Shown here: piece by piece, positions 7,768 through 39,642 of the stretch | How positions within the stretch are numbered: position 1 is the first letter of the stretch | Layout of the letters: the number at the start of each line of letters is the position of its first letter | Assembly: GCA_035459025.1 (NCBI GenBank) | Contig: DATHYT010000085.1 | Coordinates: forward strand, 64,133-128,132 | Source: Burkholderiales bacterium | Lineage (GTDB): Bacteria > Pseudomonadota > Gammaproteobacteria > Burkholderiales > SG8-39 | Length of the DNA stretch: 64,000 bases | Direction of reading: 5' to 3' | Translations under genes and position numbers: made by a program | Notes under the pieces: model-generated | What the model saw: the letters and a program-made list of their open reading frames with translations, nothing else | Databases searched by the model: none | What the model was told of the DNA's origin: nothing

Positions 7768-7769
7768 GG

Positions 7770-10078: not shown

Positions 10079-10091
10079 CTGTCGGTGCGTT

Positions 10092-11102: not shown

Positions 11103-11133
11103 GGAATCCCCCTCCGTGGGTAAGGTACGTGGC

Positions 11134-11163: not shown

Positions 11164-11172
11164 CCATCGCCC

Positions 11173-12975: not shown

Positions 12976-12982
12976 TCTTAGC

Positions 12983-12990
12983 TAACATAG
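12983..12990. promoter_or_regulatory. Overlapping back-to-back -10-like boxes in the 21-bp sulP/hyi divergent spacer
   Basis: Plus strand: TAACAT (12983-12988), 8 nt before the hyi ATG at 12997. Minus strand: TATGTT (12989->12984), 8 nt before the sulP TTG at 12975. No SD on either side. Confidence 0.3.
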
Positions 12991-12996
12991 TCGCGC

Positions 12997-16905: not shown

Positions 16906-16911
16906 GCAACG

Positions 16912-16919
16912 AGTATAGC
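16912..16919. promoter_or_regulatory. Overlapping -10-like boxes in the 23-bp spacer between the 16905 gene and glcF
   Basis: Minus strand: TATACT (16917->16912), 6 nt before the ATG at 16905. Plus strand: TATAGC (16914-16919), 9 nt before the glcF ATG at 16929. No SD on either side. Confidence 0.3.
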
Positions 16920-16928
16920 GGCCCGCCG

Positions 16929-18134
16929 ATGCAGACCGAACTCGCCGCCTTCATCCGCGACACGCCCGAGGGACAGGAGGCCGACGCCATCCTGCGCAAG
17001 TGCGTGCATTGCGGGTTCTGCACGGCCACCTGCCCGACCTACCAGCTGCTCGGCGACGAGCTCGACGGGCCGCGCGGGCGCATCTACCTCGTCAAGCAGG
17101 TGCTGGAAGGCGCTACGCCGACGGCGCGCACGCAGCTGCACCTGGACCGCTGCCTCACCTGCCGCTCGTGCGAGACCACCTGCCCGTCGGGCGTGAAGTA
17201 CGGGCGGCTCGCCGACATCGGCCGCGGCATCGTCGAGGCCAGGGTGCCGCGCTCGCTCTGGCAGCGGGTACAGCGCGCCGCGCTCGCCTTCGCCCTGCCG
17301 CGGCGCGCGCTGTTCGCGCTGCTGCTGGGGCTGGGCCGCCCGTTCCGGTTCCTGTTGCCGCGCCTCGTGCCCGCGCCGGCGGCGCCCGCCGGCGCCTGGC
17401 CGGCGCCACGGCATGCGCGCCGGATGCTCACGCTCGCGGGCTGCGTGCAGCCGGCGCTCGCGCCACGCATCAACGCAGCCGCCGCGCGCGTGCTCGATCG
17501 CATCGGCGTGTCGCTCGTCGAGGTGCCGGGCGCGGGCTGCTGCGGCGCGCTGCGCTATCACCTCAACGACCAGGACGCGGGCTGCGGCGACATGCGCGCG
17601 CTGATCGACGCCTGGTGGCCGGTCGTCGAGCGCGGCGAAGTGGAGGCGATCGTGGTGACGGCGAGCGGCTGCGGCGTGACCGTGAAGGACTACGGCCATC
17701 TGCTCGCCCATGATCCCGCCTACGCGGAAAAAGCGGCGCGCGTCGCGGCGCTGGCGCGCGACCTGAGCGAGGTGATCCCGCTCGAGGCGGTTCCCGAGCG
17801 CGCCGGCCTTGGGCGCATCGCGTTCCATTCCCCTTGCTCGTTGCAGCACGGCCAGCAGCTGCGCGGCGGCGCCGAGCGGCTGCTCACGCGCGCCGGCTTC
17901 GAGCTCACGCCGGTCCCCGAGGCGCACCTGTGCTGCGGCTCGGCGGGCACCTATTCGATCCTGCAATCCGAGCTCGCGGAGCAGCTGCGCGGCCGCAAGC
18001 TCGCGGCGCTGCAGAGCGGGCAGCCGGTCGGCATCGTCACCGCGAACATCGGTTGCCTGGTGCACCTGCAGGCGGGCGCGCAGGTGCCGGTCGCGCACTG
18101 GGTGGAACTGCTGGACGAAGCCCTGCAAGCGTAA
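16929..18134 (+). CDS. glcF: Glycolate oxidase iron-sulfur subunit GlcF
   Basis: Two ferredoxin-type motifs (CVHCGFCTATCP and CLTCRSCETTCP) plus Cys-rich CCG-type regions. Confidence 0.92.
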   Translation: MQTELAAFIRDTPEGQEADAILRKCVHCGFCTATCPTYQLLGDELDGPRGRIYLVKQVLEGATPTARTQLHLDRCLTCRSCETTCPSGVKYGRLADIGRGIVEARVPRSLWQRVQRAALAFALPRRALFALLLGLGRPFRFLLPRLVPAPAAPAGAWPAPRHARRMLTLAGCVQPALAPRINAAAARVLDRIGVSLVEVPGAGCCGALRYHLNDQDAGCGDMRALIDAWWPVVERGEVEAIVVTASGCGVTVKDYGHLLAHDPAYAEKAARVAALARDLSEVIPLEAVPERAGLGRIAFHSPCSLQHGQQLRGGAERLLTRAGFELTPVPEAHLCCGSAGTYSILQSELAEQLRGRKLAALQSGQPVGIVTANIGCLVHLQAGAQVPVAHWVELLDEALQA

Positions 18135-18144
18135 AATCCGGCGC

Positions 18145-24474: not shown

Positions 24475-25973
24475 GGCGAGCGGCGGTGCTGCTGGCGCTC
24501 GCGGCCGCGGCCGCGGCGACGCAGGCGGAGCCGCTGGTGGTGGGCTCCAAGCGCTTCACCGAGTCCTACATCCTCGGCGAGCTCATCGCGCAGACCGCGC
24601 GCGCCGCCGGCGCCGAGGTCGAGCTGCGCCCCGGCATGGGCGGCACCAAGATCCTGTACGAGGCGCTGCGCACCGGCGCCATCGACCTGTATCCGGAGTA
24701 CACCGGCACCATCGCGCGCGAGATCCTGCAGGGCGAGACGCACGCCTCGCTCGGTGCGCTGAATGCGCGCCTCGCACCGCTCGGCCTGGCGGCGTCGGTG
24801 CCGCTCGGCTTCAACAACACCTACGCCATCGGCGTGCGCGCGGCGCTGGCAGAGCGCCGGGGGCTCGGGCGCATCTCCGACCTGAAGGGGCAGCGGCGGC
24901 TGCGTTTCGGCTTCGGCCACGAGTTCCTCGCCCGGCGCGACGGCTGGCCGGGGCTCGCCGCCGCCTACGGCCTGGCGCAGCGCCCGCGCGGCCTGGATCA
25001 CGGGCTTGCCTACGAGGCGCTCGCCGCGGGCGAGGTGGACGTCATCGACCTGTATTCGACCGACGCCAAGATCGCGCGCTACGCCATCGCGATTCTCGAG
25101 GACGACCGCGGCTTCTTTCCCGCCTACGACGCGGTGCTGCTGCATCGCACCGGCGTGCCGGAGCGTTTTCCGCGCGCCTGGCGCGCACTGCGCGGGCTCG
25201 AGGGCACGATCGACGCCGAGCGCATGCGGCGCATGAACGCCGCCGCCGAGCTCGAGGGCAAGAGCTTCGCCGACGCCGCCCGCCTGCACGGCGCGGGGCG
25301 CGCGGCCCCGCCGCGGCCCGGCGCGCGCACCCTGATGGCCGCGCTGTTCGGCCCGGATTTCTGGCGCCTGACGCGCGAGCACCTGCTGCTGGTGTTCGCC
25401 TCGCTCGCCGCGAGCGTCGCCGCGGCCGTGCCGCTCGGCGTCGCGGCCGCGAAGCTGCCGCGCCTGGCGCAGCCGATCCTCGGCGTGGTGGGCGTGATCC
25501 AGACCATCCCGTCGCTCGCGCTGTTCGCTTTCCTCATCGCGCTCACCGGCGCCATCGGCACCTGGCCGGCGCTGCTGGCGCTGTTCCTGTATGCACTGCT
25601 GCCGATCGTGCGCAACACCCACGCCGGGCTCGCCGGCATCGCCGCAGGCATGCATCAGGCGGCGCTCGCGCTCGCGCTGCCACGCCGCGTGCGGCTGTGG
25701 AGAATCGAGCTGCCGCTCGCGCTGCCCACGATCCTCGCCGGCGTCAAGACCTCCGCGGTGATCAACGTCGGCACCGCCACCATCGCGGCGTTCATCGGCG
25801 CCGGCGGCTACGGCGAGCGCATCGCCTCGGGCCTGGCGTTGAACGACAACGTCATGCTGCTGGCCGGCGCGATTCCCGCCGCGGCGCTGGCGCTGCTGGT
25901 GCAGGGGGCGTTCGAGCTCGCCGAGCGCCGTTGCGCATGGATGCGCGAAGCCCCGGGGCAGGGGAAGGTATGA
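24471..25973 (+). CDS. Fused substrate-binding protein + permease of an osmoprotectant (glycine betaine/choline-type) ABC importer
   Basis: The ATG at 24471 overlaps the upstream TGA (ATGA). It has a signal peptide and an OpuAC/ProX-like SBP half (DLYPEYTGT), followed by a 5-6 TM BPD-type permease half. Confidence 0.85.
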   Translation: MRRAAVLLALAAAAAATQAEPLVVGSKRFTESYILGELIAQTARAAGAEVELRPGMGGTKILYEALRTGAIDLYPEYTGTIAREILQGETHASLGALNARLAPLGLAASVPLGFNNTYAIGVRAALAERRGLGRISDLKGQRRLRFGFGHEFLARRDGWPGLAAAYGLAQRPRGLDHGLAYEALAAGEVDVIDLYSTDAKIARYAIAILEDDRGFFPAYDAVLLHRTGVPERFPRAWRALRGLEGTIDAERMRRMNAAAELEGKSFADAARLHGAGRAAPPRPGARTLMAALFGPDFWRLTREHLLLVFASLAASVAAAVPLGVAAAKLPRLAQPILGVVGVIQTIPSLALFAFLIALTGAIGTWPALLALFLYALLPIVRNTHAGLAGIAAGMHQAALALALPRRVRLWRIELPLALPTILAGVKTSAVINVGTATIAAFIGAGGYGERIASGLALNDNVMLLAGAIPAAALALLVQGAFELAERRCAWMREAPGQGKV

Positions 25974-26070: not shown

Positions 26071-27660
26071 ATGTCGCAGGTGATTGGAGTGCCAAGGGAG
26101 TCGGCTGCCGACGAAAAGCGCGTGGCGACGGTGCCCGAGGTCGCGCAAAAGCTGATCAAGCTCGGCTTCAAGGTGATGGTGCAATCGGGCGCGGGCGCCG
26201 GCGCGAACTTCGACGATGCGTCCTACGAGGCGGTAGGCGCGCAAATCGCGCCGGACGCCAAGGCCCTCTGGTCCGCGGCGGACATCGTCTTCAAGGTGCG
26301 TGCGCCCACGGCTGAAGAGGTCGGTCTGATGCGCGGGAGCCAGACGCTGGTCTCTTTCATCTGGCCGGCGCAGAACTCCGAGCTGATGCAGAGCCTCGCG
26401 GCGCGCGGGGTCACCGTGCTGGCGATCGACTCGCTGCCGCGCATGCTGAGCCGCGCCCAGAAGATGGACGCGTTGACCTCCATGGCCAGCATCTCCGGCT
26501 ACCGCGCCGTCGTCGAGGCCGCCAACGCCTTCGGCCGCTTCTTCAACGGCCAGGTGACCGCCGCCGGAAAGATTCCTCCGGCCAAGGTGTTCATCGCCGG
26601 CGCCGGCGTGGCCGGCCTGTCCGCGATCGGCACCGCCGTCGGGTTGGGCGCCATCGTGCGCGCCAACGACACCCGGGCCGAGGTGGCTGACCAGGTGGTG
26701 TCGATGGGCGGCGAGTTCGTGAAGGTCGACTACGAGGAAGAAGGCGCCGGCGGTGGCGGCTACGCCAAGGTGATGAGCGAAGGCTTCCAGCAGGCCCAGC
26801 GCGAGATGTACGCGAAGCAGGCGAGGGAGGTGGACATCATCATCACCACCGCGCTGATTCCGGGCAAGCCCGCGCCGCGGCTGATCACGGCCGACATGGT
26901 GCGTAGCATGAAGCCGGGCAGCGTCATCGTCGACATGGCTGCGGAGCAGGGCGGCAACTGCGAGCTGACCGAGGCCGGCAAGGCCGTGGTGAAGCACGGC
27001 GTCACGATCATCGGCTATACGGACCTGCCCAGCCGGCTCGCCAAACAGTCCTCGACGCTGTATGCGACCAACCTGTTCCGCCTTGCCGAGGAGCTGTGCA
27101 AGGGCAAGGACGGCGTCATCGACGTCAACATGGAAGACGACGCCATCCGCGGCCTGACGGTCATCAAGCAGGGCAGCATCACCTGGCCGCCGCCGCCGCC
27201 CAAGCTGCCGGCGCCGCCGGCCGCCGCCAAGCCGGCGGCCGCGCCGCCCGCGCCCAAGGGGCACGGCCACGGCGCCGGCGCGCCGCGCTCGGGCAGGGCG
27301 ATGGCGATCACGTTCGTGGTGGCCGCGCTGCTGTTCTGGTTCATCGGCGCCAATGCGCCGGCGTCGTTCCTCAACCACTTCACGGTGTTCGTGCTCGCTT
27401 GCTTCGTGGGCTACATGGTGGTGTGGAACGTCACCCCGGCGCTGCACACGCCGCTGATGAGCGTCACCAACGCGATCAGCAGCATCATCGCCATCGGCGC
27501 GCTGATCCAGATCGCGCCGCCGCTCGCCGCGGGCGCCGGGGCCGACCGGCCGGAGACCTGGATCCAGTGGCTCGCGGTGGTCGCCATCGGCCTTACCGCG
27601 ATCAACATGTTCGGCGGCTTCGCCGTGACGCAGCGCATGCTGCAGATGTTCCGCAAGTAA
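26071..27660 (+). CDS. pntA: NAD(P) transhydrogenase subunit alpha
   Basis: SD AGGGAGA. An AlaDH/PNT domain ([14 protein letters not shown]), then a Pro/Ala linker, then a 4-TM C-terminus. Confidence 0.95.
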
Positions 27661-27672
27661 GGGAGACGATCC

Positions 27673-29088
27673 ATGTCCGCGACTCTGGCGACGGTCTCTT
27701 ACATCGGCGCGACCATCCTGTTCATCCTCAGCCTCGGCGGCCTCTCGCACCCGGAGACCTCGCGGCGAGGCAACCTCTACGGCATCATCGGCATGGCGAT
27801 CGCCGTGCTGGCGACGGTGTTCGGGCCGCGCGTCACGCCCGCCGGCTACGCCTGGATCATCATCGCCATGCTGATCGGCGGCAGCGTCGGCCTGTACGCC
27901 TCGCGCATCGTGAGGATGACGCAGATGCCCGAGCTGGTGGCGCTGATGCACAGCCTGGTCGGCCTCGCTGCGGTGCTGGTGGGTTTCGCCAACTTCATCG
28001 ACCCGGCGGCCTCGGTGGGCTTCAGCGGCGCGGAGAAGACCATCCACGAGGTGGAGATCTACCTCGGGATCCTGATCGGCGCGGTGACCTTCTCGGGGTC
28101 GGTGATCGCGTTCGGCAAGCTCTCGGCCAAGATCAGCGGCAAGCCGATGCTGCTGCCCGGGCGCCACTGGCTGAATCTCGCGGGCCTCGCGGTGGTGCTC
28201 TGGTTCGGCTGGCGCTTCATCCAGGCGCACTCGATCGCCGACGGCATGCTGCCGCTGGTGGTGATGACCGTGATCGCGCTGCTGTTCGGCATCCACATGG
28301 TGATGGCGATCGGCGGCGCCGACATGCCGGTGGTGGTATCGATGCTGAACAGCTACTCCGGCTGGGCGGCCGCGGCCACGGGCTTCATGCTGTCCAACGA
28401 CCTGCTGATCGTCACCGGCGCCCTGGTCGGCTCTTCGGGGGCGATCCTGTCCTACATCATGTGCCGCGCGATGAACCGGCGCTTTTTGGCGGTGATCGCC
28501 GGCGGCTTCGGCACCGAGGGCGGGGCCGTGGCTGCCAAGGGCGGCGCGCAGCCCGCGGGCGAGGTCGCGCCGATCAGCGCGCCCGAGACCGCCGAGCTGC
28601 TGCGCGAGGCGAAGAACGTGATCATCGTCCCGGGCTACGGCATGGCGGTGGCGCAGGCGCAGCACACGGTCTACGAGATCACCCGGCACCTGCGCGAAAA
28701 GGGCGTCAACGTGCGCTTTGGCATCCACCCGGTGGCCGGGCGCATGCCGGGCCACATGAACGTCCTGCTCGCCGAGGCCAAGGTGCCCTACGACATCGTG
28801 CAGGAGATGGACGAGCTGAACGACGACTTTCCGCAGACCGACGTCGCCATGGTGATCGGCGCGAACGACATCGTGAATCCGGCCGCCCAGGAGGACCCCG
28901 CGAGCCCGATCGCCGGCATGCCCGTGCTCGAGGTTTGGAAGGCGAAGACCTCGGTGGTGATGAAGCGCAGCATGGCCTCGGGTTATGCCGGCGTGGATAA
29001 CCCGCTCTTCTACAAGGAGAACAACCGCATGCTGTTCGGCGACGCGAAGAAGATGCTCGACGAGGTTCTGGTTGCCCTGAAGGGCTGA
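27673..29088 (+). CDS. pntB: NAD(P) transhydrogenase subunit beta
   Basis: SD GGGAGA. A multi-TM N-terminus and a C-terminal NADP(H) domain ([13 protein letters not shown]). Confidence 0.95.
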
Positions 29089-29146
29089 TCGAAACTCCGG
29101 CCGCGGTCCGCAGTCAGACCGCGAATACCAACCCGGGAGAGACCCC

Positions 29147-29983
29147 TTGCAGCGCTCGCTCGTCGCCCGCCTGCGCGCCCTGACCGACCGGCTCGGCCGC
29201 CGCATGAGTGCGCCGACGCTGAAAATCGGCGTCTCGGCGCGCATCCTGCATCCACAGCGCGGCGCGCGCGGCCTGCAGTCGAAGACGCTGCAGTACCTCG
29301 AGCAGACCGCCGCGCACTGGCTCATGTCGCGCGACGTGCTGGTGCTGATGGTGCCCACCGTGGATACCGGCGGCATCCTCCACCGCAGCAGCATCCGCCT
29401 GTCAGACTACGCGCGCCACCTCGACGGCCTGATGCTGCAGGGCGGCGCCGACGTCAGCCCCTTGAGCTACGGCGAGGATCCGCTGTCGCGCGAGTGGGCG
29501 GGGGACCGTCTGCGCGACGAATACGAGATCGAGCTGCTGCACGAGTTCATCGAGGCGGGCAAGCCGGTGCTCGGCGTGTGCCGCGGCCTGCAGCTCATCA
29601 ACGTCGCCTACGGCGGCACGCTCTACCAGGACATCGTGCAGCAGGTGCCCAAGGCGCGGCGCCACGTTACCGAGGACTACGAGAAGAATCTGCACGAGGT
29701 GCATTTCGAGCCGGCGGGGGCGCTCGCCCGCCTGTACCCGGGCGTCGAGCGCGCGCGCGTCAACTCTATCCACCACCAGTCCGTGAAGACCCTGGGCCGC
29801 AACCTGCGCGTCGAGGCCTGGTCCGAATCCGACCGCGTCGTCGAGGCGATCCGCGGCACCGGCGCGAGCTACGTGCTCGGCGTGCAATGGCACCCCGAGT
29901 TCCATCCCCCGGGCGACCAGAGCGTGCTCGACAGCGCGCCGATCCTCGACGAATTCCTGCGCGCGGCGCAGCGCGCGGCCTGA
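29147..29983 (+). CDS. Class-I glutamine amidotransferase-like / peptidase C26 gamma-glutamyl hydrolase family protein
   Basis: The nucleophile context is LGVCRGLQLIN and the His context is GVQWHPEF. The TTG at 29147 has GGGAGAG 5 nt upstream. The alternative ATG at 29204 has no SD. Confidence 0.85.
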   Translation: MQRSLVARLRALTDRLGRRMSAPTLKIGVSARILHPQRGARGLQSKTLQYLEQTAAHWLMSRDVLVLMVPTVDTGGILHRSSIRLSDYARHLDGLMLQGGADVSPLSYGEDPLSREWAGDRLRDEYEIELLHEFIEAGKPVLGVCRGLQLINVAYGGTLYQDIVQQVPKARRHVTEDYEKNLHEVHFEPAGALARLYPGVERARVNSIHHQSVKTLGRNLRVEAWSESDRVVEAIRGTGASYVLGVQWHPEFHPPGDQSVLDSAPILDEFLRAAQRAA

Positions 29984-29988
29984 GCCCG

Positions 29989-31200
29989 ATGGGCCTCGGC
30001 TTTCTGCCCGAACTGCCGCCCGCCTTCGGCCAGCCGGCGCTGTTTGGCGCGCTGCTGCTCGCCGGGCTGCTGGGCGGCGAGCTGGCGCGGCGGCTGCTCG
30101 GGCTGCCGCGCATCACGGGGTACGTGCTCGCCGGGGTGCTGCTCGGACCCCAGGCCTCGGGGCTGCTCGCCCCCGGCGCGCTCGGCGAGGCGCGCGTGCT
30201 GATCGACCTCTCGCTCGGGCTGATCGTGTTCGAGCTCGGCCACCGCCTCGACGTGCAGTGGTTGCACCGCAACCGTTGGCTGTTCGTCGCCGCTATCGCC
30301 GAGAGCGCATTCTGCTTCGGCGCGGTGCTCGGGACGCTCCTCGCCTTCGGTTTCCAGCCGCTGCTCGCGGCATCCGCCGCGGCCATCGGCACCGCGACGT
30401 CGCCCGCGGTGGTGCTGCTGGTGGCGCACGAGCTGCGCGCCTCGGGCCAGGTGACCGAGAGGATGCTCCTGTTCACCGCCGTGAATTGCGTGCTCGCCTA
30501 CATCGCGCTGACGCTGCTGCTGCCGTTCCTGCATCTCGAGCACGCGGTAAGCTGGCGCGAAGCCGTGCTGCACCCCCTCTACATCCTCGGCGGCTCGGCG
30601 CTGGTCGGCTCCCTTGCCAGCCTGTCGCTGCTGTGGCTCGCCGGCTGGGTCGGCAAGCGCGAGGACCGCCAGTTCATCCTGCTCATCGCGCTGGTGGTGC
30701 TGGCGGTGGGCGCCGCGCGCAGCCTCAACCTGTCGGTGGTGGTGACCCTCATCATCCTCGGCATGCTGGCGCGCAACTTCGACTACGAGCAGGTGCTGCT
30801 GCCGCTGCGCTTCGGCTACGGCGGGCAGCTGTTCTTCGTCATCCTGTTCGTGCTGACCGGCGCCAGCGTCGAGTTCACGGCGCTGCCGGGCGTGGCCGCG
30901 GCCGTGCTCGCCTTCATCGTCGCGCGCTTTGCCGGCAAGGGCCTCGCCATCCTCGTCTTCGGGCGGCTCTCGGGGGTGGGTCCGCGCAGCGCCGGGCTGC
31001 TCTCGCTTGCGCTGCTGCCGATGTCGGGTCTGGCCGTGGTGATGGTGCTGGACACGCAGGCCCTGTACCCGGCGTTCGGCGGCGAACTGGCGGCGGTGGT
31101 GCTCACGGCGGTGGCGGTGCTCGAGATCCTCGGGCCCATCGCCACCCAGTTCGCGCTGCGCCGCGCCGGCGAGGCCGACCCGGCGGCCGGCAGCGCCTGA
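29989..31200 (+). CDS. Cation:proton antiporter, CPA2/Kef-type membrane domain without a KTN/RCK domain
   Basis: ATG at 29989, 5 nt after the previous stop. 403 aa, entirely multi-TM (GYVLAGVLLGP...). There is no soluble C-terminal domain. Confidence 0.85.
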   Translation: MGLGFLPELPPAFGQPALFGALLLAGLLGGELARRLLGLPRITGYVLAGVLLGPQASGLLAPGALGEARVLIDLSLGLIVFELGHRLDVQWLHRNRWLFVAAIAESAFCFGAVLGTLLAFGFQPLLAASAAAIGTATSPAVVLLVAHELRASGQVTERMLLFTAVNCVLAYIALTLLLPFLHLEHAVSWREAVLHPLYILGGSALVGSLASLSLLWLAGWVGKREDRQFILLIALVVLAVGAARSLNLSVVVTLIILGMLARNFDYEQVLLPLRFGYGGQLFFVILFVLTGASVEFTALPGVAAAVLAFIVARFAGKGLAILVFGRLSGVGPRSAGLLSLALLPMSGLAVVMVLDTQALYPAFGGELAAVVLTAVAVLEILGPIATQFALRRAGEADPAAGSA

Positions 31201-31208
31201 GGGCCGAC

Positions 31209-32345
31209 GTGGACGAGACCGATTTCAAGGCCTCGCCGGAGCTCACCTTCGGCGTCGAGCTCGAGTTGCAGCTGGTGCAGCCGCACGACCTTGACCTGGC
31301 GCGCGACGCCGGCGAGCTGCTGGCGCGACTCGAGAAGCTGAAGCTCCCCGGGGCGGTGAAGCCCGAGATCACCGAGAGCATGATCGAGCTGAACACCTCG
31401 ATCCACCGCAGCTATCCCAGCCTGGCCGCGGAGCTCGACGCCATGCGCGATGCGGTGGTGAAGGAAGCCGGCATGCTGAATCTTCGCGTGTGCGGCGGCG
31501 GCTCTCACCCGTTCCACAGCTGGAGCGAGCGGCGCGTGTTCCCCACCGAGCGCTTCCGCCACATCCTCGAGCGCTACGGCTACCTCGCCAAGCAGTTCAC
31601 CGTGTTCGGCCAGCACATCCACGTCGGCTGCGCGAGCGGCGACGACGCGGTGTACCTGGTGCACATGATGACGCGCTATGTGCCGCATTTCATCGCCCTG
31701 TCGGCCGCTTCGCCCTTCTACCAGGGCGAAGACACGTCGTTCCAGTCCTCGCGTCTCACCGCGATTAACGCCTTCCCGCTGGCCGGGCATATGCCGTTTG
31801 TCGATGACTGGGCGGAGTTCCGCGTGTACTTCGAGAAGTTGCGCGCGCTCGGCGTGGTGGAGAGCATGAAGGACTTCTACTGGGACATCCGCCCCAAGCC
31901 CGAGTACGGCACCGTCGAGATCCGCGTCTGCGACACGCCGCTCAGCGTGGCGCGCGCGGCGCAGCTCGCCGCCTACGCGCAAGCGCTCGCCAAGTGGCTT
32001 CTCGAGCAGCGCCCGCGACAGCCCAAGCGCGCCGTGTACCTGGTGAACGCCTTCAACCGCTTCGAGGCGGCGCGCTTCGGGCTGCGCGGCCAGCTCATCG
32101 ACCCGTACGAGGAAGTGAAGCGCCCGCTCGCCGAGGACATCCTTGACGCGCTGGCGGGCGTCATGCCGCAGGCGGCTGCACTGGAAAGCGCCGACGCGCT
32201 GTCGGCGCTCGCCGCCGACGTGCGCCGCGGCTATTCGGACGCCGGCTGGCTGCGCGAGCGCTTCGCCGCCAACCAGTCGCTCGCGCACACGGTGCGCGAA
32301 TCCACGGCGCGCTGGGCGGGCGACAAGCCGCGCGCCAGCGGCTAG
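31209..32345 (+). CDS. ybdK: Carboxylate-amine ligase YbdK (glutamate-cysteine ligase family 2)
   Basis: GTG at 31209. Family motifs present: FGVELELQLV, EITESMIELNT, FGQHIHVG, YWDIRPKPEYGTVEIRVCD. Confidence 0.88.
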   Translation: MDETDFKASPELTFGVELELQLVQPHDLDLARDAGELLARLEKLKLPGAVKPEITESMIELNTSIHRSYPSLAAELDAMRDAVVKEAGMLNLRVCGGGSHPFHSWSERRVFPTERFRHILERYGYLAKQFTVFGQHIHVGCASGDDAVYLVHMMTRYVPHFIALSAASPFYQGEDTSFQSSRLTAINAFPLAGHMPFVDDWAEFRVYFEKLRALGVVESMKDFYWDIRPKPEYGTVEIRVCDTPLSVARAAQLAAYAQALAKWLLEQRPRQPKRAVYLVNAFNRFEAARFGLRGQLIDPYEEVKRPLAEDILDALAGVMPQAAALESADALSALAADVRRGYSDAGWLRERFAANQSLAHTVRESTARWAGDKPRASG

Positions 32346-32348
32346 AAT
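32343..32348 (+). promoter_or_regulatory. TAGAAT box overlapping the ybdK stop codon, 23 nt upstream of mrpE
   Basis: Sequence gcTAGAATcgcgcgctgcggcgcacgcacccATG. The TAG of the box is the ybdK stop. Confidence 0.3.
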
Positions 32349-32371: not shown

Positions 32372-32848
32372 ATGCTCCACTTCGCGATACTTTTCGTCCT
32401 GTTCTACGCGTTCTGGATCCTGATGTCGGGATTCTTCACGCCGTTCCTGCTCGCGGCGGGCGCGGCGACCAGTCTGGCCGTGGTGTGGTTCGCGCACCGC
32501 ATGGACCTGGCGGACCGCGAAGGCCATCCCGTGCACCTCCTGTGGTCGGCGCTCACGTACTGGCCGTGGCTCGTGCGCGAGATCCTGAAATCCGCGCTCG
32601 ACGTCTCGAAGGTGATTCTCGACCCGCAGCTGCCGGCCTCGCCGACGGTGGTGCAGTTCAAGCCGCGGCAGAAGACCGTGGTCGGCCTGGTGACCCACGC
32701 CAACTCCATCACCCTGACCCCGGGCACGCTGTCCGTCGAGGTGGGGCCCGATCGCTTCCTGGTGCACGGGCTCACGCGCGAGAGCGCCAACGCGGCGGTC
32801 GACAGCGACATGGACCGGCGCGTCGAGCGCTTCGAGCGCAGGCCATGA
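32372..32848 (+). CDS. Mrp/Mnh-type cation:proton antiporter subunit E
   Basis: 158 aa and MnhE-like (FYAFWILMSG..., ANSITLTPGTLSV). Confidence 0.85.
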   Translation: MLHFAILFVLFYAFWILMSGFFTPFLLAAGAATSLAVVWFAHRMDLADREGHPVHLLWSALTYWPWLVREILKSALDVSKVILDPQLPASPTVVQFKPRQKTVVGLVTHANSITLTPGTLSVEVGPDRFLVHGLTRESANAAVDSDMDRRVERFERRP

Positions 32849-33129
32849 TGTTCGCCGCCGCGGCGCTCGCGCTGCTCGTCGCGCTCGCCCTGGCGCTCGC
32901 GCGCGCGATCGCGGGCCCGACGGTGTTCGACCGCGCGCTTGCCGCCAATTCCATCGGCACGCTCGCCATGATGATCCTGGCGGTGTTCGGTTTCCTCACC
33001 GGGCGCCCCGAGTTCCTCGATCTCGCCATCCTCTACGGACTGCTCAACGTCATCGGCACGATCGCCGTGCTCAAGTTCTTCCGCTACGGCGATCTCGGCG
33101 ACCCGGGCAGGCCGGAGGAAGAGCGGTGA
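32845..33129 (+). CDS. Mrp/Mnh-type antiporter subunit F
   Basis: The ATG at 32845 overlaps the E stop (ATGA). 94 aa, 3 TM, MrpF/PhaF-like (DRALAANSIGT). Confidence 0.85.
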   Translation: MMFAAAALALLVALALALARAIAGPTVFDRALAANSIGTLAMMILAVFGFLTGRPEFLDLAILYGLLNVIGTIAVLKFFRYGDLGDPGRPEEER

Positions 33130-33458
33130 ACGTGCTGCTCGAAGCCCTGTCCTGGGCGCTGCTCGCCGCCGGCGGCGCGTTCTGCGTCATCGGCGCGCTC
33201 GGCTTGGTGCGCCTGCACAGCTTCTTTCCGCGCACCCACGCCGCGAGCGTCATCGACTCGGCGGGCGCCGGGCTGCTGCTCGCCGGCATGCTGCTGCAGG
33301 CGGGCTGGACGCTGGTGGCGGTGAAGCTCCTGGTGATCGGGCTGCTCATCTTCTTTGCTTCGCCCACCGCGACGCACGCGCTTGCCAACGCCGCGCGCGA
33401 GCGCGGGGTGGCATACGACGAGATGACCGAGGAGGGGGAGGCGCCATCGAAGCCCTGA
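33126..33458 (+). CDS. Mrp/Mnh-type antiporter subunit G
   Basis: The GTG at 33126 overlaps the F stop (GTGA). 110 aa, MnhG/PhaG-like (GALGLVRLHSFFPRTHAAS). Confidence 0.85.
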   Translation: MNVLLEALSWALLAAGGAFCVIGALGLVRLHSFFPRTHAASVIDSAGAGLLLAGMLLQAGWTLVAVKLLVIGLLIFFASPTATHALANAARERGVAYDEMTEEGEAPSKP

Positions 33459-33478
33459 TCATCCAGGCGCTGCTCACG

Positions 33479-33988
33479 ATGATGGCGGCGACGGTCATCG
33501 CCATCATCGCGCAGAGGAACCTGTTCTCGGTGGTGGTGCTCGCCGGCGTCTACAGCTTCCTCATGGCGACGGTGCTGGTGGCGCTCGATGCGGTGGACGT
33601 CGCCATGACCGAGGCGTCGGTGGGCGCCGGCATCTCGACGGTGCTGCTGCTCGGCGCGCTGTATTTGTGCGGCGGCGAGGAGGCCAAGCCGATGGCGCGG
33701 CCGTGGCTGCCGCTCGCGGTGACGCTGGTGATCGTCGGCGCGCTGGTGTACGGCACCCTCGGCCTGCCGGCTTTCTCCGATCCCATGGCGCCGATCCATA
33801 CGCACGTCGTGCCGCGCTACCTGGGCCAGGCGCTCGCCGAAACGGGCGTTCCCAACGTGGTGACCGCCGTGCTCGCGAGCTACCGCGGCTACGACACGCT
33901 CGGCGAAACGGTGGTGGTGTTCACGGCGGGCATAGGCGTGATCGCGCTGCTGCGCCGCGCGCGCCGCGGCAAGGAGAAGGGCAAGTGA
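33479..33988 (+). CDS. DUF4040/MbhD-like membrane protein (equivalent of the MrpA C-terminal domain)
   Basis: 169 aa with the region VALDAVDVAMTEASVGAGISTVLLL, typical of MbhD/MnhB-N. The true start may lie upstream, because the in-frame IEALIIQALLT also looks like part of the domain but has no canonical start codon. Confidence 0.75.
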   Translation: MMAATVIAIIAQRNLFSVVVLAGVYSFLMATVLVALDAVDVAMTEASVGAGISTVLLLGALYLCGGEEAKPMARPWLPLAVTLVIVGALVYGTLGLPAFSDPMAPIHTHVVPRYLGQALAETGVPNVVTAVLASYRGYDTLGETVVVFTAGIGVIALLRRARRGKEKGK

Positions 33989-34407
33989 GGCGCGAGCCCG
34001 TCCTGCGCGTGGTGGGCAAGCTGCTCATTCCGTACATGCTGGTGTTCGCCCTGTACGTGCAGTTCCATGGCGATTTCGGCCCGGGCGGCGGCTTCCAGGC
34101 GGGAGTGATCACGGCGGCGTCGATCATCTTCTACGCGCTCATCTTCGGTCTGCCGGCCGCGCGGCGCGCAGTACCCGAGGCCCTGGTCGAAGCCATGGTG
34201 GCGCTCGGCGCGTTCCTGTACGTGGCGGTCGGCTTTGCCGGGCTCGCGCTCGGCGGCAACTACCTGGATTACTTCGTGCTCCACCCCAACCCGGTAGAAG
34301 GCCAGCATCGCGGCATCTTCTGGGTCGAGGTCGGCGTGCTGGTCACGGTGTCGGGCGTGATGCTGAAGATCTTCTACGTGTTCGCCGGGCGCGGCCGCGA
34401 GAGCTGA
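33985..34407 (+). CDS. Mrp/Mnh-type antiporter subunit B
   Basis: The GTG at 33985 overlaps the previous stop (GTGA). 140 aa, MnhB-like (LYVQFHGDFGPGGGFQAG). Confidence 0.85.
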   Translation: MRREPVLRVVGKLLIPYMLVFALYVQFHGDFGPGGGFQAGVITAASIIFYALIFGLPAARRAVPEALVEAMVALGAFLYVAVGFAGLALGGNYLDYFVLHPNPVEGQHRGIFWVEVGVLVTVSGVMLKIFYVFAGRGRES

Positions 34408-34410
34408 AGT

Positions 34411-34779
34411 ATGTCGGCGTTCGCGAGTCACTATACCTACTGGGTCACCGTGCTGCTGATGGCCGCGGGCCTGTACATCATGATCGCGCGCGGCAACCTG
34501 GTGAAGAAGCTCATCGGGCTGTCGATCTTCCAGACCTCGGTGTACCTGCTGTACATCGCGCCCGGCAAGCTGATCGGCGGCACCGCGCCCATCCTGTCCC
34601 AGGCCTACAAGGTGTATTCGAACCCGCTGCCGCACGTGCTGATCCTCACCGCGATCGTGGTGGGGATCGCGACGCTCGCGCTCGGCCTCGCCATCGTGGT
34701 GCGCATCCGCGAGGCCTACGGCAGCATCGAGGAAGACGAGATCGTCGCCGCGGACGCGAAGCGCGGGGACGGCGAGTGA
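34411..34779 (+). CDS. Mrp/Mnh-type antiporter subunit C (NuoK-like)
   Basis: 122 aa with the motif GNLVKKLIGLSIFQTSVYLLYI. Confidence 0.9.
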   Translation: MSAFASHYTYWVTVLLMAAGLYIMIARGNLVKKLIGLSIFQTSVYLLYIAPGKLIGGTAPILSQAYKVYSNPLPHVLILTAIVVGIATLALGLAIVVRIREAYGSIEEDEIVAADAKRGDGE

Positions 34780-36257
34780 TCTCCGAGCACCTGCCGGCGC
34801 TGCAGGTGGTCGTGCCGCTCGCCGCGGCGCCGCTCATCGTGCTGCTGCGCCATCCGGGCATCGCCTGGGCGATCGCCGTGGCGGCGAGCGTGTTCGCGTT
34901 CGGCGCGAGCCTCGGGCTCGCTGCGGAGGTGGCGCGCAGCGGCGTCATCTCCTACGCCATGGGCAGCTGGCCGCCGCCCTGGGGCATCGAGTACCGCGTC
35001 GACGCGCTGTCGGCGTTCGTGCTGGTACTGGTATCGGCGATCGGCGCGCTGGTCGCGCCCTACGCCCTGCGCAGCGTGGCCGCGGAGGTACCGCGCGAGC
35101 AGCGCTACCTGTATTACGCGGTGCACTGCCTGTGCCTCGCGGGCCTGCTCGGCATGACGATCACCGGCGACGCCTTCAACGTGTTCGTGTTCATGGAGAT
35201 CGCCTCGCTCGCGATGTACGTGCTGATCGCGCTGGGGCGCGACCGGCGCGCGCTGCTCGCCTCGTACCAGTACCTGATCCTCGGCACCATCGGCGCCACG
35301 TTCTACGTGATTGGCGTCGGGCTGCTCTACCTCGTCACCGGCACGCTCAACATCGCCGACATGGCCGAGCGCCTGCCGCAGGCCGGCGCGGCGCGGCCGG
35401 TGCTGGCCGCGCTCGCGTTCATCACCGTCGGGCTGTCGCTCAAGCTCGCGCTGTTCCCCTTGCACCTCTGGCTCCCGAACGCCTATGCCTACGCGCCCTC
35501 CGCGGCCACCGCGCTCCTCGCCGCGACCGCCACCAAGGTCTCGGTGTACGTCCTGCTGCGCTATTACTTTTCGGTGTTCGGCGCCGGGCTGGTGGTCGAG
35601 TCCCTGCCGGTGCCGGAGATTTTGATCGGCCTGTCGATCGCCGCCATCGTCACCGCGTCGCTCGTCGCGCTGTGGCAGGCGGACTTCAAGCGCCTGCTCG
35701 CCTACTCGAGCGTGGCGCAGATCGGGTACATCACGCTCGGCATCGGTCTCGCGACGCGCGACGGGCTGACCGCGGCGGTGGTGCACCTGTTCAACCACGG
35801 CATTACCAAAGGGGCCCTGTTCCTGCTCGTCGGCGGCATCGCGCTGCGCGCGGGTGGCGTGAATTTCGCGCGCCTGCAGGGCCTCGCGCGCGCGATGCCG
35901 CTCACCTGCCTCGGCGTGACGCTTGCCGGGCTGTCGCTCATCGGCGTGCCGGGCACGGCCGGGTTCATCAGCAAGTGGTATCTCGTGCTCGGCGCCATTG
36001 AGGCCGGGCACTGGTGGCTCGCGGGGCTGGTGGTACTCACCTCGCTGATCGCCGTGGCCTACGTCTGGCGCTTCGTCGAGGCCGCTTACCTCAGCGAGCC
36101 GGCCGCGGGCACGGCGCGCATCGCGGAGGCGCCGCTGCCGATGCTGGCGATTTCCTGGGTGCTGGTCGGTGCCTGCGTCTGGTTCGGCTTCGACACGTCC
36201 TTTACGGTCGAGGGCGCGCGCCGCGCGGCACTGCTCATGCTGGGCGGCACGCCGTGA
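34776..36257 (+). CDS. Antiporter-like subunit, MrpD/NuoM-N type (paralogue 1)
   Basis: The GTG at 34776 overlaps the C stop. 493 aa. Proton_antipo_M-type core with LHLWLPNAYAYAPSAATALLAATATKVSVY. Confidence 0.9.
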   Translation: MISEHLPALQVVVPLAAAPLIVLLRHPGIAWAIAVAASVFAFGASLGLAAEVARSGVISYAMGSWPPPWGIEYRVDALSAFVLVLVSAIGALVAPYALRSVAAEVPREQRYLYYAVHCLCLAGLLGMTITGDAFNVFVFMEIASLAMYVLIALGRDRRALLASYQYLILGTIGATFYVIGVGLLYLVTGTLNIADMAERLPQAGAARPVLAALAFITVGLSLKLALFPLHLWLPNAYAYAPSAATALLAATATKVSVYVLLRYYFSVFGAGLVVESLPVPEILIGLSIAAIVTASLVALWQADFKRLLAYSSVAQIGYITLGIGLATRDGLTAAVVHLFNHGITKGALFLLVGGIALRAGGVNFARLQGLARAMPLTCLGVTLAGLSLIGVPGTAGFISKWYLVLGAIEAGHWWLAGLVVLTSLIAVAYVWRFVEAAYLSEPAAGTARIAEAPLPMLAISWVLVGACVWFGFDTSFTVEGARRAALLMLGGTP

Positions 36258-37705
36258 CCGGCGCGCAGCTGATCGCCGCGTGCCTCGTCGTGCCCGCCGC
36301 GGGCGCGGCGGGCATTGCGCTCGCCGGACGCTGGCCGAACGCGCGCGAGACGGTGACGCTCGGCACCGCGGCGCTGCTGTTCGCGTGCGTGCTCGGCCTG
36401 CTGCCTACCGTGCTGGCGGGCGGCATTCCGCAGCTGTTCGTGCTCGAGATGCTCCCCGGCATCGCGCTCGGCTTTCGCGTCGAGCCGCTCGGGATGCTCT
36501 TCGCGCTGGTGGCCTCCGGGCTGTGGATCGTGAACTCGGTCTACTCCATCGGCTACATGCGCGGCAACGAGGAGCCGCACCAGACGCGCTTTTACGTCTG
36601 CTTCGCGCTGGCGCTCGCCGCCACCATGGGCATCGCCCTGTCGGCAAACCTGCTGACGCTGTTCGTGTTCTACGAGATGCTGACGCTGGTCACCTGGCCG
36701 CTGGTGACGCACCACGGCGACGACGAGGCGAGAAAGGGCGGGCGCGTGTACCTCGGCGTGCTGCTCGGCACGTCGATCGTGCTGCTGCTGCCGGCCGTGA
36801 TCGCCACCTGGGCGATTGCCGGAACGCTGGAGTTCACCCCGGGCGGCATTCTCGGCGACAAGGTGTCGGGCGCCGCGCTCGGGGGGCTGCTGGCGCTGTA
36901 CATGTTCGGCATTGGCAAGGCGGCGCTGATGCCGATGCACCGCTGGCTGCCGGCGGCGATGGTGGCGCCGACGCCGGTGTCGGCGCTGCTGCACGCGGTG
37001 GCGGTGGTGAAGGCGGGCGTGTTCGCGGTGGTGAAAGTCGTCGTCTACGTCTTCGGCACCGGGGCGCTCGCCGCCACCACGGCTTCCGACTGGCTGCCGA
37101 CGGTCGCCGGCTTCACCGTCATCGCCGCCTCCGTGGTCGCGCTTCGCGCCGACAATCTGAAGCGCCGCCTCGCCTACTCGACGGTGAGCCAGCTGTCCTA
37201 CGTGGTGCTGGCGGCGGCGATCCTCGCGCCCCTTTCGGTGATCGGAGCGACCCTGCATATCGCCGCGCACGCCGTCGGCAAGATCACCCTGTTCTTCGCT
37301 GCCGGCGCGATCTACACCGCTGCCCACAAGACCGAAGTCAGCCAGCTCGACGGCATCGGCCGGCGCATGCCCTGGACCATGGGCGCATTTGCCGTCGGGG
37401 TGCTGTCGATGATCGGGCTGCCGCCGGCCGCCGGCTTCGTCAGCAAGTGGTACATGCTGGCGGGCGCACTCCAGGCCGAGCACTGGGTGGCGGTCGGCGT
37501 GATCGCCGCGAGCACGCTGCTCAACGCCGCCTACTTCGTGCCGATCGTGTACCGCGCGTTCTTTCGCGCGCCGCACGGCGAGCGCCACGGCGAGGCGCCG
37601 CTGCCGATGGTGCTCGCGCTCGTCGCCACCGCGCTCGCCACGCTGGCGTTGTTCTTCTTCCCGCAAGTGCCGCTCGCGCTGGCGCGCGCGCTGCCCGGAG
37701 GCTGA
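36254..37705 (+). CDS. Antiporter-like subunit, MrpA/NuoL-core type (paralogue 2)
   Basis: The GTG at 36254 overlaps the previous stop. 483 aa. The motif HRWLPAAMVAPTPVSALLHAVAVVKAG is NuoL/MrpA-like. Confidence 0.85.
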   Translation: MTGAQLIAACLVVPAAGAAGIALAGRWPNARETVTLGTAALLFACVLGLLPTVLAGGIPQLFVLEMLPGIALGFRVEPLGMLFALVASGLWIVNSVYSIGYMRGNEEPHQTRFYVCFALALAATMGIALSANLLTLFVFYEMLTLVTWPLVTHHGDDEARKGGRVYLGVLLGTSIVLLLPAVIATWAIAGTLEFTPGGILGDKVSGAALGGLLALYMFGIGKAALMPMHRWLPAAMVAPTPVSALLHAVAVVKAGVFAVVKVVVYVFGTGALAATTASDWLPTVAGFTVIAASVVALRADNLKRRLAYSTVSQLSYVVLAAAILAPLSVIGATLHIAAHAVGKITLFFAAGAIYTAAHKTEVSQLDGIGRRMPWTMGAFAVGVLSMIGLPPAAGFVSKWYMLAGALQAEHWVAVGVIAASTLLNAAYFVPIVYRAFFRAPHGERHGEAPLPMVLALVATALATLALFFFPQVPLALARALPGG

Positions 37706-37706
37706 G

Positions 37707-37964
37707 ATGAGCGATCACTGGCTGGTACGTCCCTCCACGATCCGGCTGCTGTGGCGGGTGTTCATCGCCGTGCTCGCCCTTACCGTGATCGCGGAGTTCC
37801 TCGTCGTGCACCACCCGCACTTTGCCGTCGAGTCGGTGCCCGCGTTCGGCGCCTGGTACGGCTTTGTCGCCTGTGCCGGCATGATTCTGTTCGCCAAGGG
37901 GCTGGCGCTGTTCCTCAAGCGGCCCGACACCTACTACGAGGGCGAGGAGGGCCGCGATGCCTAG
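37707..37964 (+). CDS. Small 2-TM membrane protein of unknown function embedded in the Mrp-like operon
   Basis: The ATG lies 1 nt after the previous stop. The ORF overlaps the next gene by 8 nt. 85 aa with two hydrophobic helices. Confidence 0.6.
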   Translation: MSDHWLVRPSTIRLLWRVFIAVLALTVIAEFLVVHHPHFAVESVPAFGAWYGFVACAGMILFAKGLALFLKRPDTYYEGEEGRDA

Positions 37965-39642
37965 CGCCTGGCTGCATCCGGGCCTGCTGGTGATCGTCGC
38001 GGGCCTCGCGCTCGCGCTGCTGCGCGGCCGGGCGCGCGAGGCGGTGGCGCTCGTCGCCCCGCTCGCCGCGTTGTGGCTCGTGCTTGCCGCGCCCACGGGC
38101 ATCGCCTGGAGCGGCACCTGGCTCGGCCTGGAGGTGCGGCCGCTCGCCTACGATGCGCTGTCGCGGCTGTTCGCCGCGATCTTCGCGATCATGGCGTTCG
38201 CCGGCGGCCTGTATGCCCTCAACCAGAAGAGCCGGCTCGAGCTGCCCGCGGCCTACGTCTACGCCGGATCGGCGCTTGGCGCGGTGCTCGCCGGCGACCT
38301 GGTCACGCTGTTCGTGTTCTGGGAACTGATGGCGGTCGGCTCGACGCTCGTCATCTGGAGCGCGGGGACCGGACCGTCGTACCGCGCGAGCATGCGCTAC
38401 CTTTCGATTCACCTGCTGGGCGGCGTGCTGCTGTTCGCCGGCATCGCGGGCCACGTTGCCGCGACCGGATCCACGGAATTCACGCGCCTGGCGCTCGACG
38501 CGCCCGCCCACTGGCTGATCCTCGCCGGGTTCCTGATCAACGCCGGTGCGCCGCCGCTTTCGGCGTGGCTGCCCGACGCCTACCCGGAAGCGAGCTGGAG
38601 CGGCATGGTGTTCCTGTCGGCGTTCACCACCAAGACCGCGGTGTACGTGCTGCTGCGCGGCTTCCCGGGCACCGAGCTCCTCGTGTGGGTGGGCCTGTTC
38701 ATGGTGTTCTACGGCATCGTCTACGCGCTGCTCGAGAACGACATGCGGCGCATCCTCGCCTACAGCATCGTCAACCAGGTCGGCTTCATGGTGACCGGCA
38801 TCGGCATCGGCACGGAGATGGCGCTGAACGGCGCCGCGGCGCACGCCTTCACGCACATCATCTACAAGGCCCTGCTGCTCATGTCCGCGGGGTCGGTGCT
38901 CTACGCTACGCAAAAGCGCAAGTGCACCGACCTCGGGGGCCTGTTCCGCACCATGCCGCTCACGACGGTGTGCGGCACCATCGGCGCGCTCGCGATCTCG
39001 TCGTTCCCGCTCACCTCGGGCTTCGTGTCGAAGTCGATGATCTCGCAGGCCGCGGGCGATGAGCACCTGCTGTGGGTGTGGCTCGCGCTCGCCGCGGCGA
39101 CCGCGGGTGTCTTCCTGCACGCAGGGATCAAGTTCCCGTGGTTCGTGTTCTTCCAGAAGGATTCGGGCCTGCGCCCGCCCGAGCCGCCGCTCAACATGCG
39201 CCTCGCGATGCTGCTGTTTGCGGCGCTGTGCATCGGCCTCGGGGTCTTCTACCAGCCGCTGTATGCCCTGCTGCCCTTCAGCACGGGCTACGTGCCCTAC
39301 ACCGGGTCCCACGTCGTCGTGCAGCTCGAGTTGCTGCTGTTCTCGGGGCTCGCGTTCTTTGTCATGCTGCCCATGCTGCGGCGCACACTCACCATCACGC
39401 TGGACGTCGACTGGTTCTACCGCCGGCTTGCGCCGGCGCTCGCCGCCGCCCTCCTGGCTGCTCTGCGCGCGGTCGGGGCGGTGCTCGGGGCGGCGCGGGA
39501 CGGCGGCATGCGACGAATCAAGACCGGCGCGCATGCGTTGCACGGGCCACAGGCGCTGTTCGCGCGCACCTGGACGACGGGCGGAATGGCGCTGTGGGCC
39601 GCGCTCTTGCTGGCCGGGTATCTCCTGGTCGTCTACCTCTGA
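37957..39642 (+). CDS. Antiporter-like subunit, MrpD-type with C-terminal extension (paralogue 3)
   Basis: 561 aa. The core contains AWLPDAYPEASWSGMVFLSAFTTKTAVYVLLR. The extra ~85-aa tail ends in a TM helix. Confidence 0.85.
   Translation: MPSAWLHPGLLVIVAGLALALLRGRAREAVALVAPLAALWLVLAAPTGIAWSGTWLGLEVRPLAYDALSRLFAAIFAIMAFAGGLYALNQKSRLELPAAYVYAGSALGAVLAGDLVTLFVFWELMAVGSTLVIWSAGTGPSYRASMRYLSIHLLGGVLLFAGIAGHVAATGSTEFTRLALDAPAHWLILAGFLINAGAPPLSAWLPDAYPEASWSGMVFLSAFTTKTAVYVLLRGFPGTELLVWVGLFMVFYGIVYALLENDMRRILAYSIVNQVGFMVTGIGIGTEMALNGAAAHAFTHIIYKALLLMSAGSVLYATQKRKCTDLGGLFRTMPLTTVCGTIGALAISSFPLTSGFVSKSMISQAAGDEHLLWVWLALAAATAGVFLHAGIKFPWFVFFQKDSGLRPPEPPLNMRLAMLLFAALCIGLGVFYQPLYALLPFSTGYVPYTGSHVVVQLELLLFSGLAFFVMLPMLRRTLTITLDVDWFYRRLAPALAAALLAALRAVGAVLGAARDGGMRRIKTGAHALHGPQALFARTWTTGGMALWAALLLAGYLLVVYL

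Follow-up and report, generated by a model that had tools for sequence, protein, structure and literature searches.

Does a compact run of antiporter-like membrane genes whose order departs from the textbook mrpABCDEFG layout encode a plain Na+/H+ antiporter, or does it serve another purpose? We addressed this question for positions 32372-39642 of a 64,000-nucleotide stretch of a Burkholderiales bacterium assembly (GCA_035459025.1, contig DATHYT010000085.1; the whole 64-kb stretch is referred to as the window). A preliminary description made from the letters alone had proposed here a Mrp/Mbh-like module in which MrpA is split and three subunits are antiporter-like, and Pfam assignments, a structure model of the distal subunit and an alignment to MrpA bear out that proposal. 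Our analysis indicates, with a probability of roughly 0.7, that the ten genes encode one stand-alone, proton-motive-force-driven Mrp-type (CPA3, group 3) monovalent cation/proton antiporter with three proton paths.

All ten open reading frames (ORFs) lie on the + strand, co-directional and with intact frames, at exactly the coordinates and lengths first described. From 5' to 3' they are mrpE (32372..32848, 158 aa), mrpF (32845..33129, 94 aa), mrpG (33126..33458, 110 aa), an MbhD+MbhE gene equivalent to the MrpA C-terminal domain (33479..33988, 169 aa; the MbhD/E protein), mrpB (33985..34407, 140 aa; MbhF-like, MrpB' in Pyrococcus furiosus naming), mrpC (34411..34779, 122 aa; NuoK-like) and four genes that we call D1 (34776..36257, 493 aa; MrpD type), D2 (36254..37705, 483 aa; NuoL/MrpA-core-like), X (37707..37964, 85 aa; a two-helix membrane protein) and D3 (37957..39642, 561 aa; the distal antiporter-like subunit). 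The junctions measure -4, -4, +20, -4, +3, -4, -4, +1 and -8 nt. In eight of the nine, the genes overlap or stand no more than 3 nt apart, just as previously reported: the mrpE stop overlaps the mrpF start in ATGA at 32845, GTGA overlaps stand at 33126, 33985, 34776 and 36254, the short gaps fall at 34408-34410 (+3) and 37706 (+1), and the 8-nt overlap lies at 37957. The third-codon-position GC (GC3) frame plot agrees with the reading frame of each of the ten ORFs in this window of ~70% G+C, and independent gene calls on metagenome contigs with identical proteins yield the same lengths. The nearest protein matches are metagenome-assembled genomes (MAGs) labelled Betaproteobacteria or Burkholderiales. 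The cluster is a genuine, intact and tightly coupled ten-gene operon of the group 3 Mrp (CPA3) type.

Profile hidden Markov model assignment gave Mrp-type Pfam families to nine genes, namely MNHE (mrpE, E 3.8e-31), MrpF_PhaF, PhaG_MnhG_YufB, MbhD+MbhE, MnhB, Oxidored_q2 and, in D1, D2 and D3, Proton_antipo_M, which D2 combines with Proton_antipo_N. Five genes passed curated NCBIfam cut-offs: MrpG (TIGR01300, 66.6 vs 63.1), the MbhD/E protein (NF009159, 175.7 vs 141), MrpB (NF009162, 183.8 vs 120), MrpC (NF005624, 131.5 vs 95) and D3 (NF009310 (PRK12668), 684.8 vs 564); D1 and D2 stayed under the cut-offs of their best NCBIfam models (451.7/700 and 572.4/663, respectively). Models for this subfamily are thus already available at NCBI, which names the 561-aa D3 gene "Na(+)/H(+) antiporter subunit D". 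All Mrp domain types (MrpA N-terminal-like, MrpA C-terminal-like and B to G) are thus encoded together, nine of the ten genes being recognized by Pfam or NCBIfam. The full-length MrpA and the A-(B)-C-D-E-F-G order of group 1 and 2 Mrp systems are not what we found, since MrpA is split and the order differs; the irregular order, the lack of a full-length mrpA and the three Proton_antipo_M genes are those of group 3.

The three large subunits were compared with solved structures. D1 matched MbsH (219.7 bits) and MrpD of 7qru (194.6 bits) best and is MrpD/MbsH/MbhH-like, whereas the top relatives of D2 were NuoL, NdhF and MrpA (core). The motif HRWLPAAMVAPTPVSALLHA, noted in the 483-aa protein from the outset, is present in D2. 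D3 was distant from all structures (~107 bits), with MbsH and MbsH' among its top matches. When aligned with NuoL, NuoM and NuoN of E. coli, D3 alone of the three subunits shows a NuoL-like C-terminal extension, and its motif D-x-D-W-x-Y-R aligns with "FDWLYDK" of NuoL. The AlphaFold2 (AF2) model of D3 (predicted local distance difference test score, pLDDT, 92) comprises a 14-helix core followed by helices 450-474, 486-529 and 541-560, the second of which spans 44 residues. A Foldseek search with this model placed MrpA (7qru_A, 6z16_A), NdhF and NuoL on top, with TM-scores of ~0.8 over the full length. The model thus assigns the predicted MrpA/NuoL-type transmembrane helix (TM) 15, lateral helix and TM16 to D3, not D2, and makes D3 the structural equivalent of MrpA TM1-16 and of NuoL. 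The MbhD/E protein aligns to MrpA residues 643-803 of 7qru_A. Because D3 bears the lateral helix and its model lies closest to MrpA, the split MrpA consists of D3 (TM1-16) and the MbhD/E protein (TM17-21). D2, despite its NuoL-like core motif, is an extra 14-helix pump subunit with the core only and no lateral helix. The roles first given to the distal subunits accordingly hold in part: the NuoL/MrpA-core likeness of the 483-aa protein stands at the sequence level, whereas the 561-aa protein labelled "MrpD-like" is the one that bears TM15, the lateral helix and TM16. Among PDB entries, no three-pump Mrp was found.

The 85-aa protein X had been called an orphan, a label that did not survive, since X proved to be a conserved subunit with two helices. 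Its homologues form 267 protein clusters, none of them named, and it lies directly 5' of D3 in 79/80 genome loci. An X-like ORF was present in each metagenome locus examined; where tblastn had missed it, the gap between D2 and D3 holds a two-helix ORF ending in R..(E/D)DYY. Among close relatives H4, W5, W16, the acidic residue of helix 1 (E30), K71 and R72 are invariant, and the AF2 model (pLDDT 74) forms a hairpin of helices 9-35 and 47-70. No Pfam or NCBIfam family matched X, and a profile search of all PDB sequences was also without a match. X was also considered as a split-off TM15/16, and hhalign comparison with the D3 family and E. coli NuoL gave nothing significant. The X-D3 pair occurs on its own in two surveyed loci (L073, 9667-11491, and L153), and in a third (L082, 9757-17672) it points away from the remaining eight genes; since the pair persists apart from the rest of the cluster, X and D3 behave as a unit. 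The D3 family comprises one clade with Asn and one with Lys at the TM7 Lys position, and X differs between the two as well, in Glu or Asp in helix 1 and in K71 or Met.

Residue conservation was counted over ~100 related loci (59 + 36 loci for MrpF N35). In D1, E141, K223, K254 and K400 are conserved and correspond to the TM5 Glu, TM7 Lys, TM8 Lys and TM12 Lys. D2 conserves E141, K222, H247, K253 and K398 and so keeps the same four positions, and D3 keeps the TM5 Glu, TM8 Lys and TM12 Lys. On the cation side, D40, D139 and E143 of the MbhD/E protein match MrpA D678, D776 and E780. The putative cation exit-site residues D139/E143 (MrpA D776/E780) and F37/E115 of MrpB (MrpB F41/D121) are invariant, as are MrpC Q41 and the MrpF D29-R30 motif, in which D29 is the essential Asp of MrpF. 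As judged from these comparisons, the proton machinery appears canonical and the cation site seems remodelled in a family-specific manner, through the replacements given below.

The type is widespread. D3 has 863 representatives at 50% identity (E <= 1e-30), and its relatives occur in at least 591 GTDB species genomes (one genome per species scanned) and on at least 566 metagenome contigs (in a scan made with the sister clade). Gene order was counted in the best 80 genome loci, 64 of which had at least 6 kb of upstream sequence, with gene presence determined by tblastn. The full ten-gene order was found in 55/64 species-level genome loci and in 28/35 metagenome loci with enough upstream sequence, and it is kept in alpha-, beta- and gammaproteobacteria, Gemmatimonadota and Magnetococcales. 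Some carriers are in culture, such as Roseospira goensis, Terasakiella brassicae, Limibaculum sediminis and strains of Pseudoalteromonas and Thalassotalea, and the habitats of homologues are marine, saline and groundwater. The term "atypical" therefore holds against textbook mrpABCDEFG only; overall the architecture is very common, belongs to group 3, is covered by NCBIfam models and is listed in genome papers. Flanking ORFs of 58 loci were clustered and the ten commonest neighbour families annotated with Pfam; no conserved flanking partner emerged in these loci, the commonest family being present in 9/58, and no redox enzyme, hydrogenase or Nuo-type family was among the ten.

In the proposed mechanism, MrpE, G and F, MrpB, the MbhD/E-like protein and MrpC would form the cation-translocating end, with the MrpD-like D1 adjoining MrpC. 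D2 and D3 would lengthen the proton-translocating arm, D3 lying distally and strapping the arm together through its C-terminal TM15, lateral helix and TM16 in the manner of MrpA and NuoL, and X may be a small two-helix accessory subunit bound up with D3. With the MrpA N-terminal domain replaced by a D2-X-D3 module, there would be three proton paths instead of two. Three paths would in turn raise the H+ per cation ratio and make cation extrusion more strongly electrogenic, which might be of advantage at high salt or under a small or reversed pH gradient.

The antiporter reading is favoured because all Mrp domain types sit in one tightly coupled operon and because the first seven genes match the order of the stand-alone P. 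furiosus Mrp. It is favoured further by the conservation of the transmembrane Glu/Lys residues of D1-D3 (bar D3 TM7) and of the exit-site residues, and by a D3 model that has a 44-residue lateral helix and matches MrpA/NuoL best. The lack of a conserved partner in the 58 loci and of any Nuo or hydrogenase gene in the window, together with local neighbours that are salt- and osmotic-stress genes, points the same way. Finally, the group 3 Mrp of Aphanothece halophytica complements Na+-sensitive E. coli (PMC5703873).

Several observations weigh against this reading. In D3, N195 occupies the TM7 Lys position, which is Asn in 80/80 members of the window's clade and Lys in 79/80 of the sister clade. 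N35 of MrpF, invariant in the 59 + 36 related loci, replaces an Asp present in all four solved F subunits (6cfw_B, 6z16_F, 6u8y_B, 7qru_F); this residue, Asp35 in Anoxybacillus flavithermus and Asp38 in Bacillus pseudofirmus, has been placed on the proposed Na+ path (PMC7419157, PMC9568556). The position of MrpA Glu687/706 is G49 family-wide, with an invariant E45 four residues (one helical turn) earlier, and T42 and Y45 of MrpC stand at the A. flavithermus H37 and H40 positions, where the family has Thr/Val and Tyr/Phe. In A. flavithermus numbering, MrpF D29 and MrpA D792 and E796 of the Na+ path are kept, whereas MrpF D35, MrpA E706 and MrpC H37/H40 are not. Because these residues are replaced family-wide, the ion specificity or the path could differ. 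Moreover, the salt-stress neighbourhood is not kept in other genomes, and the subunit arrangement outlined above is a proposal drawn from homology to solved Mrp, membrane-bound hydrogenase (MBH) and complex I structures. Lastly, no functional assay of the ten-gene type was found in the literature searched; a common, already characterised subgroup with demonstrated Na+/H+ antiport had been named at the outset as one finding that would overturn the proposal, and the census confirms that the architecture is common while no demonstrated antiport was found in that literature.

A bolder proposal can be built on the same observations, namely that the operon represents a distinct Mrp subclass in which D2-X-D3 is a portable replacement for MrpA-N/NuoL that is also plugged into green complex I, the remodelled cation site confers another ion specificity, and the third path gives another H+/cation stoichiometry. 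We regard this as possible but tentative, with the odds somewhat against it.

A Mrp-type complex with another substrate or direction than the classical Na+ extruder (K+/H+, Ca2+/H+ or Na+-driven proton extrusion) is unlikely. The cation-path swaps (MrpF Asp to Asn, MrpA Glu687 to Gly with a shifted Glu, and MrpC His to Thr/Tyr, to which MrpB His34 to Asp is added by D30 of the mrpB product) are invariant in ~100 loci and unlike all solved Mrp, MBH and MBS structures. Mrp activities other than Na+ are documented (PMC5703873), such as K+/H+ for Sinorhizobium Pha1 and Ca2+/H+ for the Thermomicrobium roseum Mrp, and the P. furiosus Mrp has been proposed as a Na+ importer and H+ exporter (PMC8415708). 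However, the family retains the exit-site carboxylates as well as MrpF D29-R30, no known sequence rule predicts Mrp ion specificity, and the marine, saline and groundwater habitats of the homologues fit Na+ handling equally well.

The operon might alternatively supply the ion-translocating arm of a pump powered by redox chemistry, akin to MBH, MBS, Fpo or complex I, with a soluble or anchoring partner encoded at another place in the genome; we consider this improbable. The order E-F-G-(MbhD/E)-B-C-D is that of the MBH membrane arm, as had been recognized, but it is equally the P. furiosus Mrp order (PMC8415708). A homologous D2-X-D3 trio lies within a nuo operon on Sinorhizobium megaplasmids, and mrpC-D1-D2-X-D3 stands alone in a few gammaproteobacterial genomes, so the genes are separable. 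Nevertheless, neither the cluster nor the window holds NuoH/MbhM-like, NuoB/D-like or NuoA/J-like genes, no conserved neighbour of these kinds appears in the 58 loci, and the operon includes MrpE, F and G, which stand-alone antiporters also have. With Nuo proteins of Sinorhizobium and E. coli as tblastn queries, the 64-kb window gave no match for NuoA, B, C, D, E or J (a full-length query was lacking for NuoH), and Pfam annotation of the near and more distant window genes surveyed revealed no hydrogenase. The earlier statement that the window contains no hydrogenase or Nuo peripheral genes was thus upheld, and none is conserved beside the 58 related loci. A linked NiFe-hydrogenase-like module and a NuoH-like anchor (MbhM), which mark MBH and MBS, were found neither in the window genes surveyed nor among the ten commonest neighbour families of the 58 loci; the window likewise has no nuo genes as in complex I or green complex I, and shares only D2-X-D3 with the Sinorhizobium operon. 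That the operon is a decaying, non-functional duplicate of a canonical Mrp with a spurious 85-aa ORF is highly improbable, as nothing specific favours it beyond the missing database family of that ORF, whereas the ten frames are intact, the junctions coupled, the order and key residues conserved across several phyla, and X has 267 homologous clusters with invariant residues and keeps its place between D2 and D3 also in loci where its divergence defeats tblastn.

Upstream of the operon, pntA, pntB, a C26 peptidase/glutamine amidotransferase, a CPA-type Na+/H+ exchanger and a GCS2 carboxylate-amine ligase (26071-32345) are co-directional with gaps of 5-58 nt, and the ligase gene ends 26 nt before mrpE. 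Because these genes are co-directional and close-set up to that point, the Mrp genes may belong to a longer transcript. A sigma-70-like promoter match at 32320..32348 (+), 5' of mrpE, is weak (9/12 positions) and not significant, being the single one in 15.7 kb with 0.8 expected by chance, and the promoter and terminator scan around the operon gave no significant signal. Further upstream, a single ORF with OpuAC substrate-binding and ABC permease domains (24486-25973) encodes a fused betaine-type transporter component, and a TRAP transporter and an amidase lie 3' of the operon. The OpuA-type betaine transporter, the CPA-type Na+/H+ exchanger and the TRAP transporter make up the local salt- and osmotic-stress genes; the rest of the window holds housekeeping genes.

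A GlcD-like FAD protein, a GlcF-like Fe-S/CCG protein and a 789-aa molybdopterin oxidoreductase are encoded at 14996-20178, 12-17 kb upstream of the Mrp genes, with a GGDEF/PAS protein and transporters lying in between; they show no linkage to Mrp in other genomes. The window's only tblastn matches to the Nuo queries were a weak NuoG-like one to this unrelated molybdopterin oxidoreductase (17809-20178) and a ferredoxin-like one within the GlcF-like gene.

Other features of the surveyed loci vary. The commonest neighbour in the 58 loci is a MASE1-domain histidine kinase (9/58, divergently upstream in 8), and a LuxR-type response regulator occurs in 8 loci, upstream in 7/8; the two (seen, for example, at L018, 2429-4060 (-), and L020, 13556-14236 (-)) could be a regulator pair in some lineages. 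Four gammaproteobacterial MAGs (L051, L062, L068 and L070, ~6460-11650) carry a shortened mrpC-D1-D2-X-D3, and neither mrpE/F/G nor B-type genes lie within 10 kb of it. The flanking genes of L068 are unrelated (PCuAC, phosphatidylserine decarboxylase, an epimerase and MMPL), and a nuoL/M/N-like run ends ~2 kb upstream. One locus (L145) has two X-D3 pairs, one of them before the full cluster, another (L154) has two D3-like genes in tandem, and in a third (L041, 12905-16790) a second, different Mrp-like cluster follows the ten-gene cluster.

Taken together, the type is widespread and already annotated. The databases and papers searched do not contain the X subunit, the identification of D3 as the lateral-helix subunit, the sharing of D2-X-D3 with green complex I or the remodelled cation site; on these grounds the family is reasonable to choose for biochemistry, although the locus itself is not exceptional. 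In its host, the operon most likely serves everyday salt and pH homeostasis. As a class, however it may be used, a stand-alone three-pump Mrp with a lateral helix would be the closest free-living analogue of the proton-pumping arm of complex I, and would offer a simple system in which to ask how an added pump subunit alters the H+/ion stoichiometry.

Among known systems, group 3 Mrp is defined by an irregular order or the lack of a full mrpA, often with several mrpD genes (PMC5703873, PMC8415708). Genome papers list similar arrangements, including "MrpEFGBBCDD" in a Solemya symbiont (PMC4287430) and "Mnh/MrpEFGBCD1D2D3" in Verruconatronum (PMC13274419). For Ca. Nitrospira alkalitolerans, two additional NuoM/L-like genes are noted in a group 3 Mrp (PMC7784846). 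The stand-alone Mrp of P. furiosus (mrpEFGBB'CD; PMC8415708) shares the order and domains of the window's first seven genes, its 'B' being an MbhD/E fusion and its 'B'' MbhF-like, and likewise has no full-length MrpA and no redox module. As described, it is without D2, X, D3 and a lateral-helix subunit, all of which the window has downstream. Its deletion alters the pH dependence of growth and Na+-stimulated H2 production, and it was proposed to import Na+ and export H+ (PMC8415708). Group 1/2 Mrp complexes solved by cryo-EM (A. flavithermus 6z16, B. pseudofirmus 7qru, Dietzia 7d3u) are homologous in all subunit types and agree in the proton-path Glu/Lys and the exit-site carboxylates, and the D3 model superposes on their MrpA including the lateral helix. 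The window differs from them in its split MrpA, extra D2, X and gene order, and in the replacement of MrpF Asp35/38, MrpA Glu687/706 and MrpC His37/40. The group 3 Mrp of A. halophytica (mrpCD1D2EFGAB), for which Na+/H+ antiport has been shown (cited in PMC5703873), is similarly a stand-alone antiporter with an irregular order and more than one mrpD-like gene, but its order is another one and, as described there, it has two large subunits compared to three in the window.

The remaining relatives are respiratory complexes. MBS (6u8y) also joins more than one antiporter-like subunit (MbsH, MbsH') to a Mrp-like Na+ module, but its MbsJ, K, L, M and N form a redox module resembling a hydrogenase, to which nothing linked in the window is equivalent. 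Rhizobial green complex I has two MrpD-like subunits in place of NuoL (cited in PMC9040806 and PMC7415380), and the best plasmid matches of D3 are on Sinorhizobium megaplasmids. The operon there reads nuoJ, nuoK, a D2 homologue, an 84-aa gene, a D3 homologue and nuoM, followed by nuoA-G. Compared to the window (36254-39642), the trio (identified for instance at 9328-15083 of locus L168, Sinorhizobium sp. C101 plasmid NZ_CP104137.1) shows 53% identity for D2, 40% over 68 aa for X (E 4e-11) and 49% for D3, and the D3 homologue has the same Asn at the TM7 position; the 84-aa X homologue is annotated "hypothetical protein" only. In rough neighbour-joining trees with no bootstrap support, the rhizobial proteins are sister to the Mrp clades and not nested within them. 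The Sinorhizobium trio sits within an NADH dehydrogenase operon that has nuoA-N genes, whereas that of the window follows mrpD with no redox genes. The presence of a homologous trio in a Mrp operon and a nuo operon indicates that D2-X-D3 is a module used in two contexts, which suggests a definite building block for exchange between antiporters and respiratory complexes.

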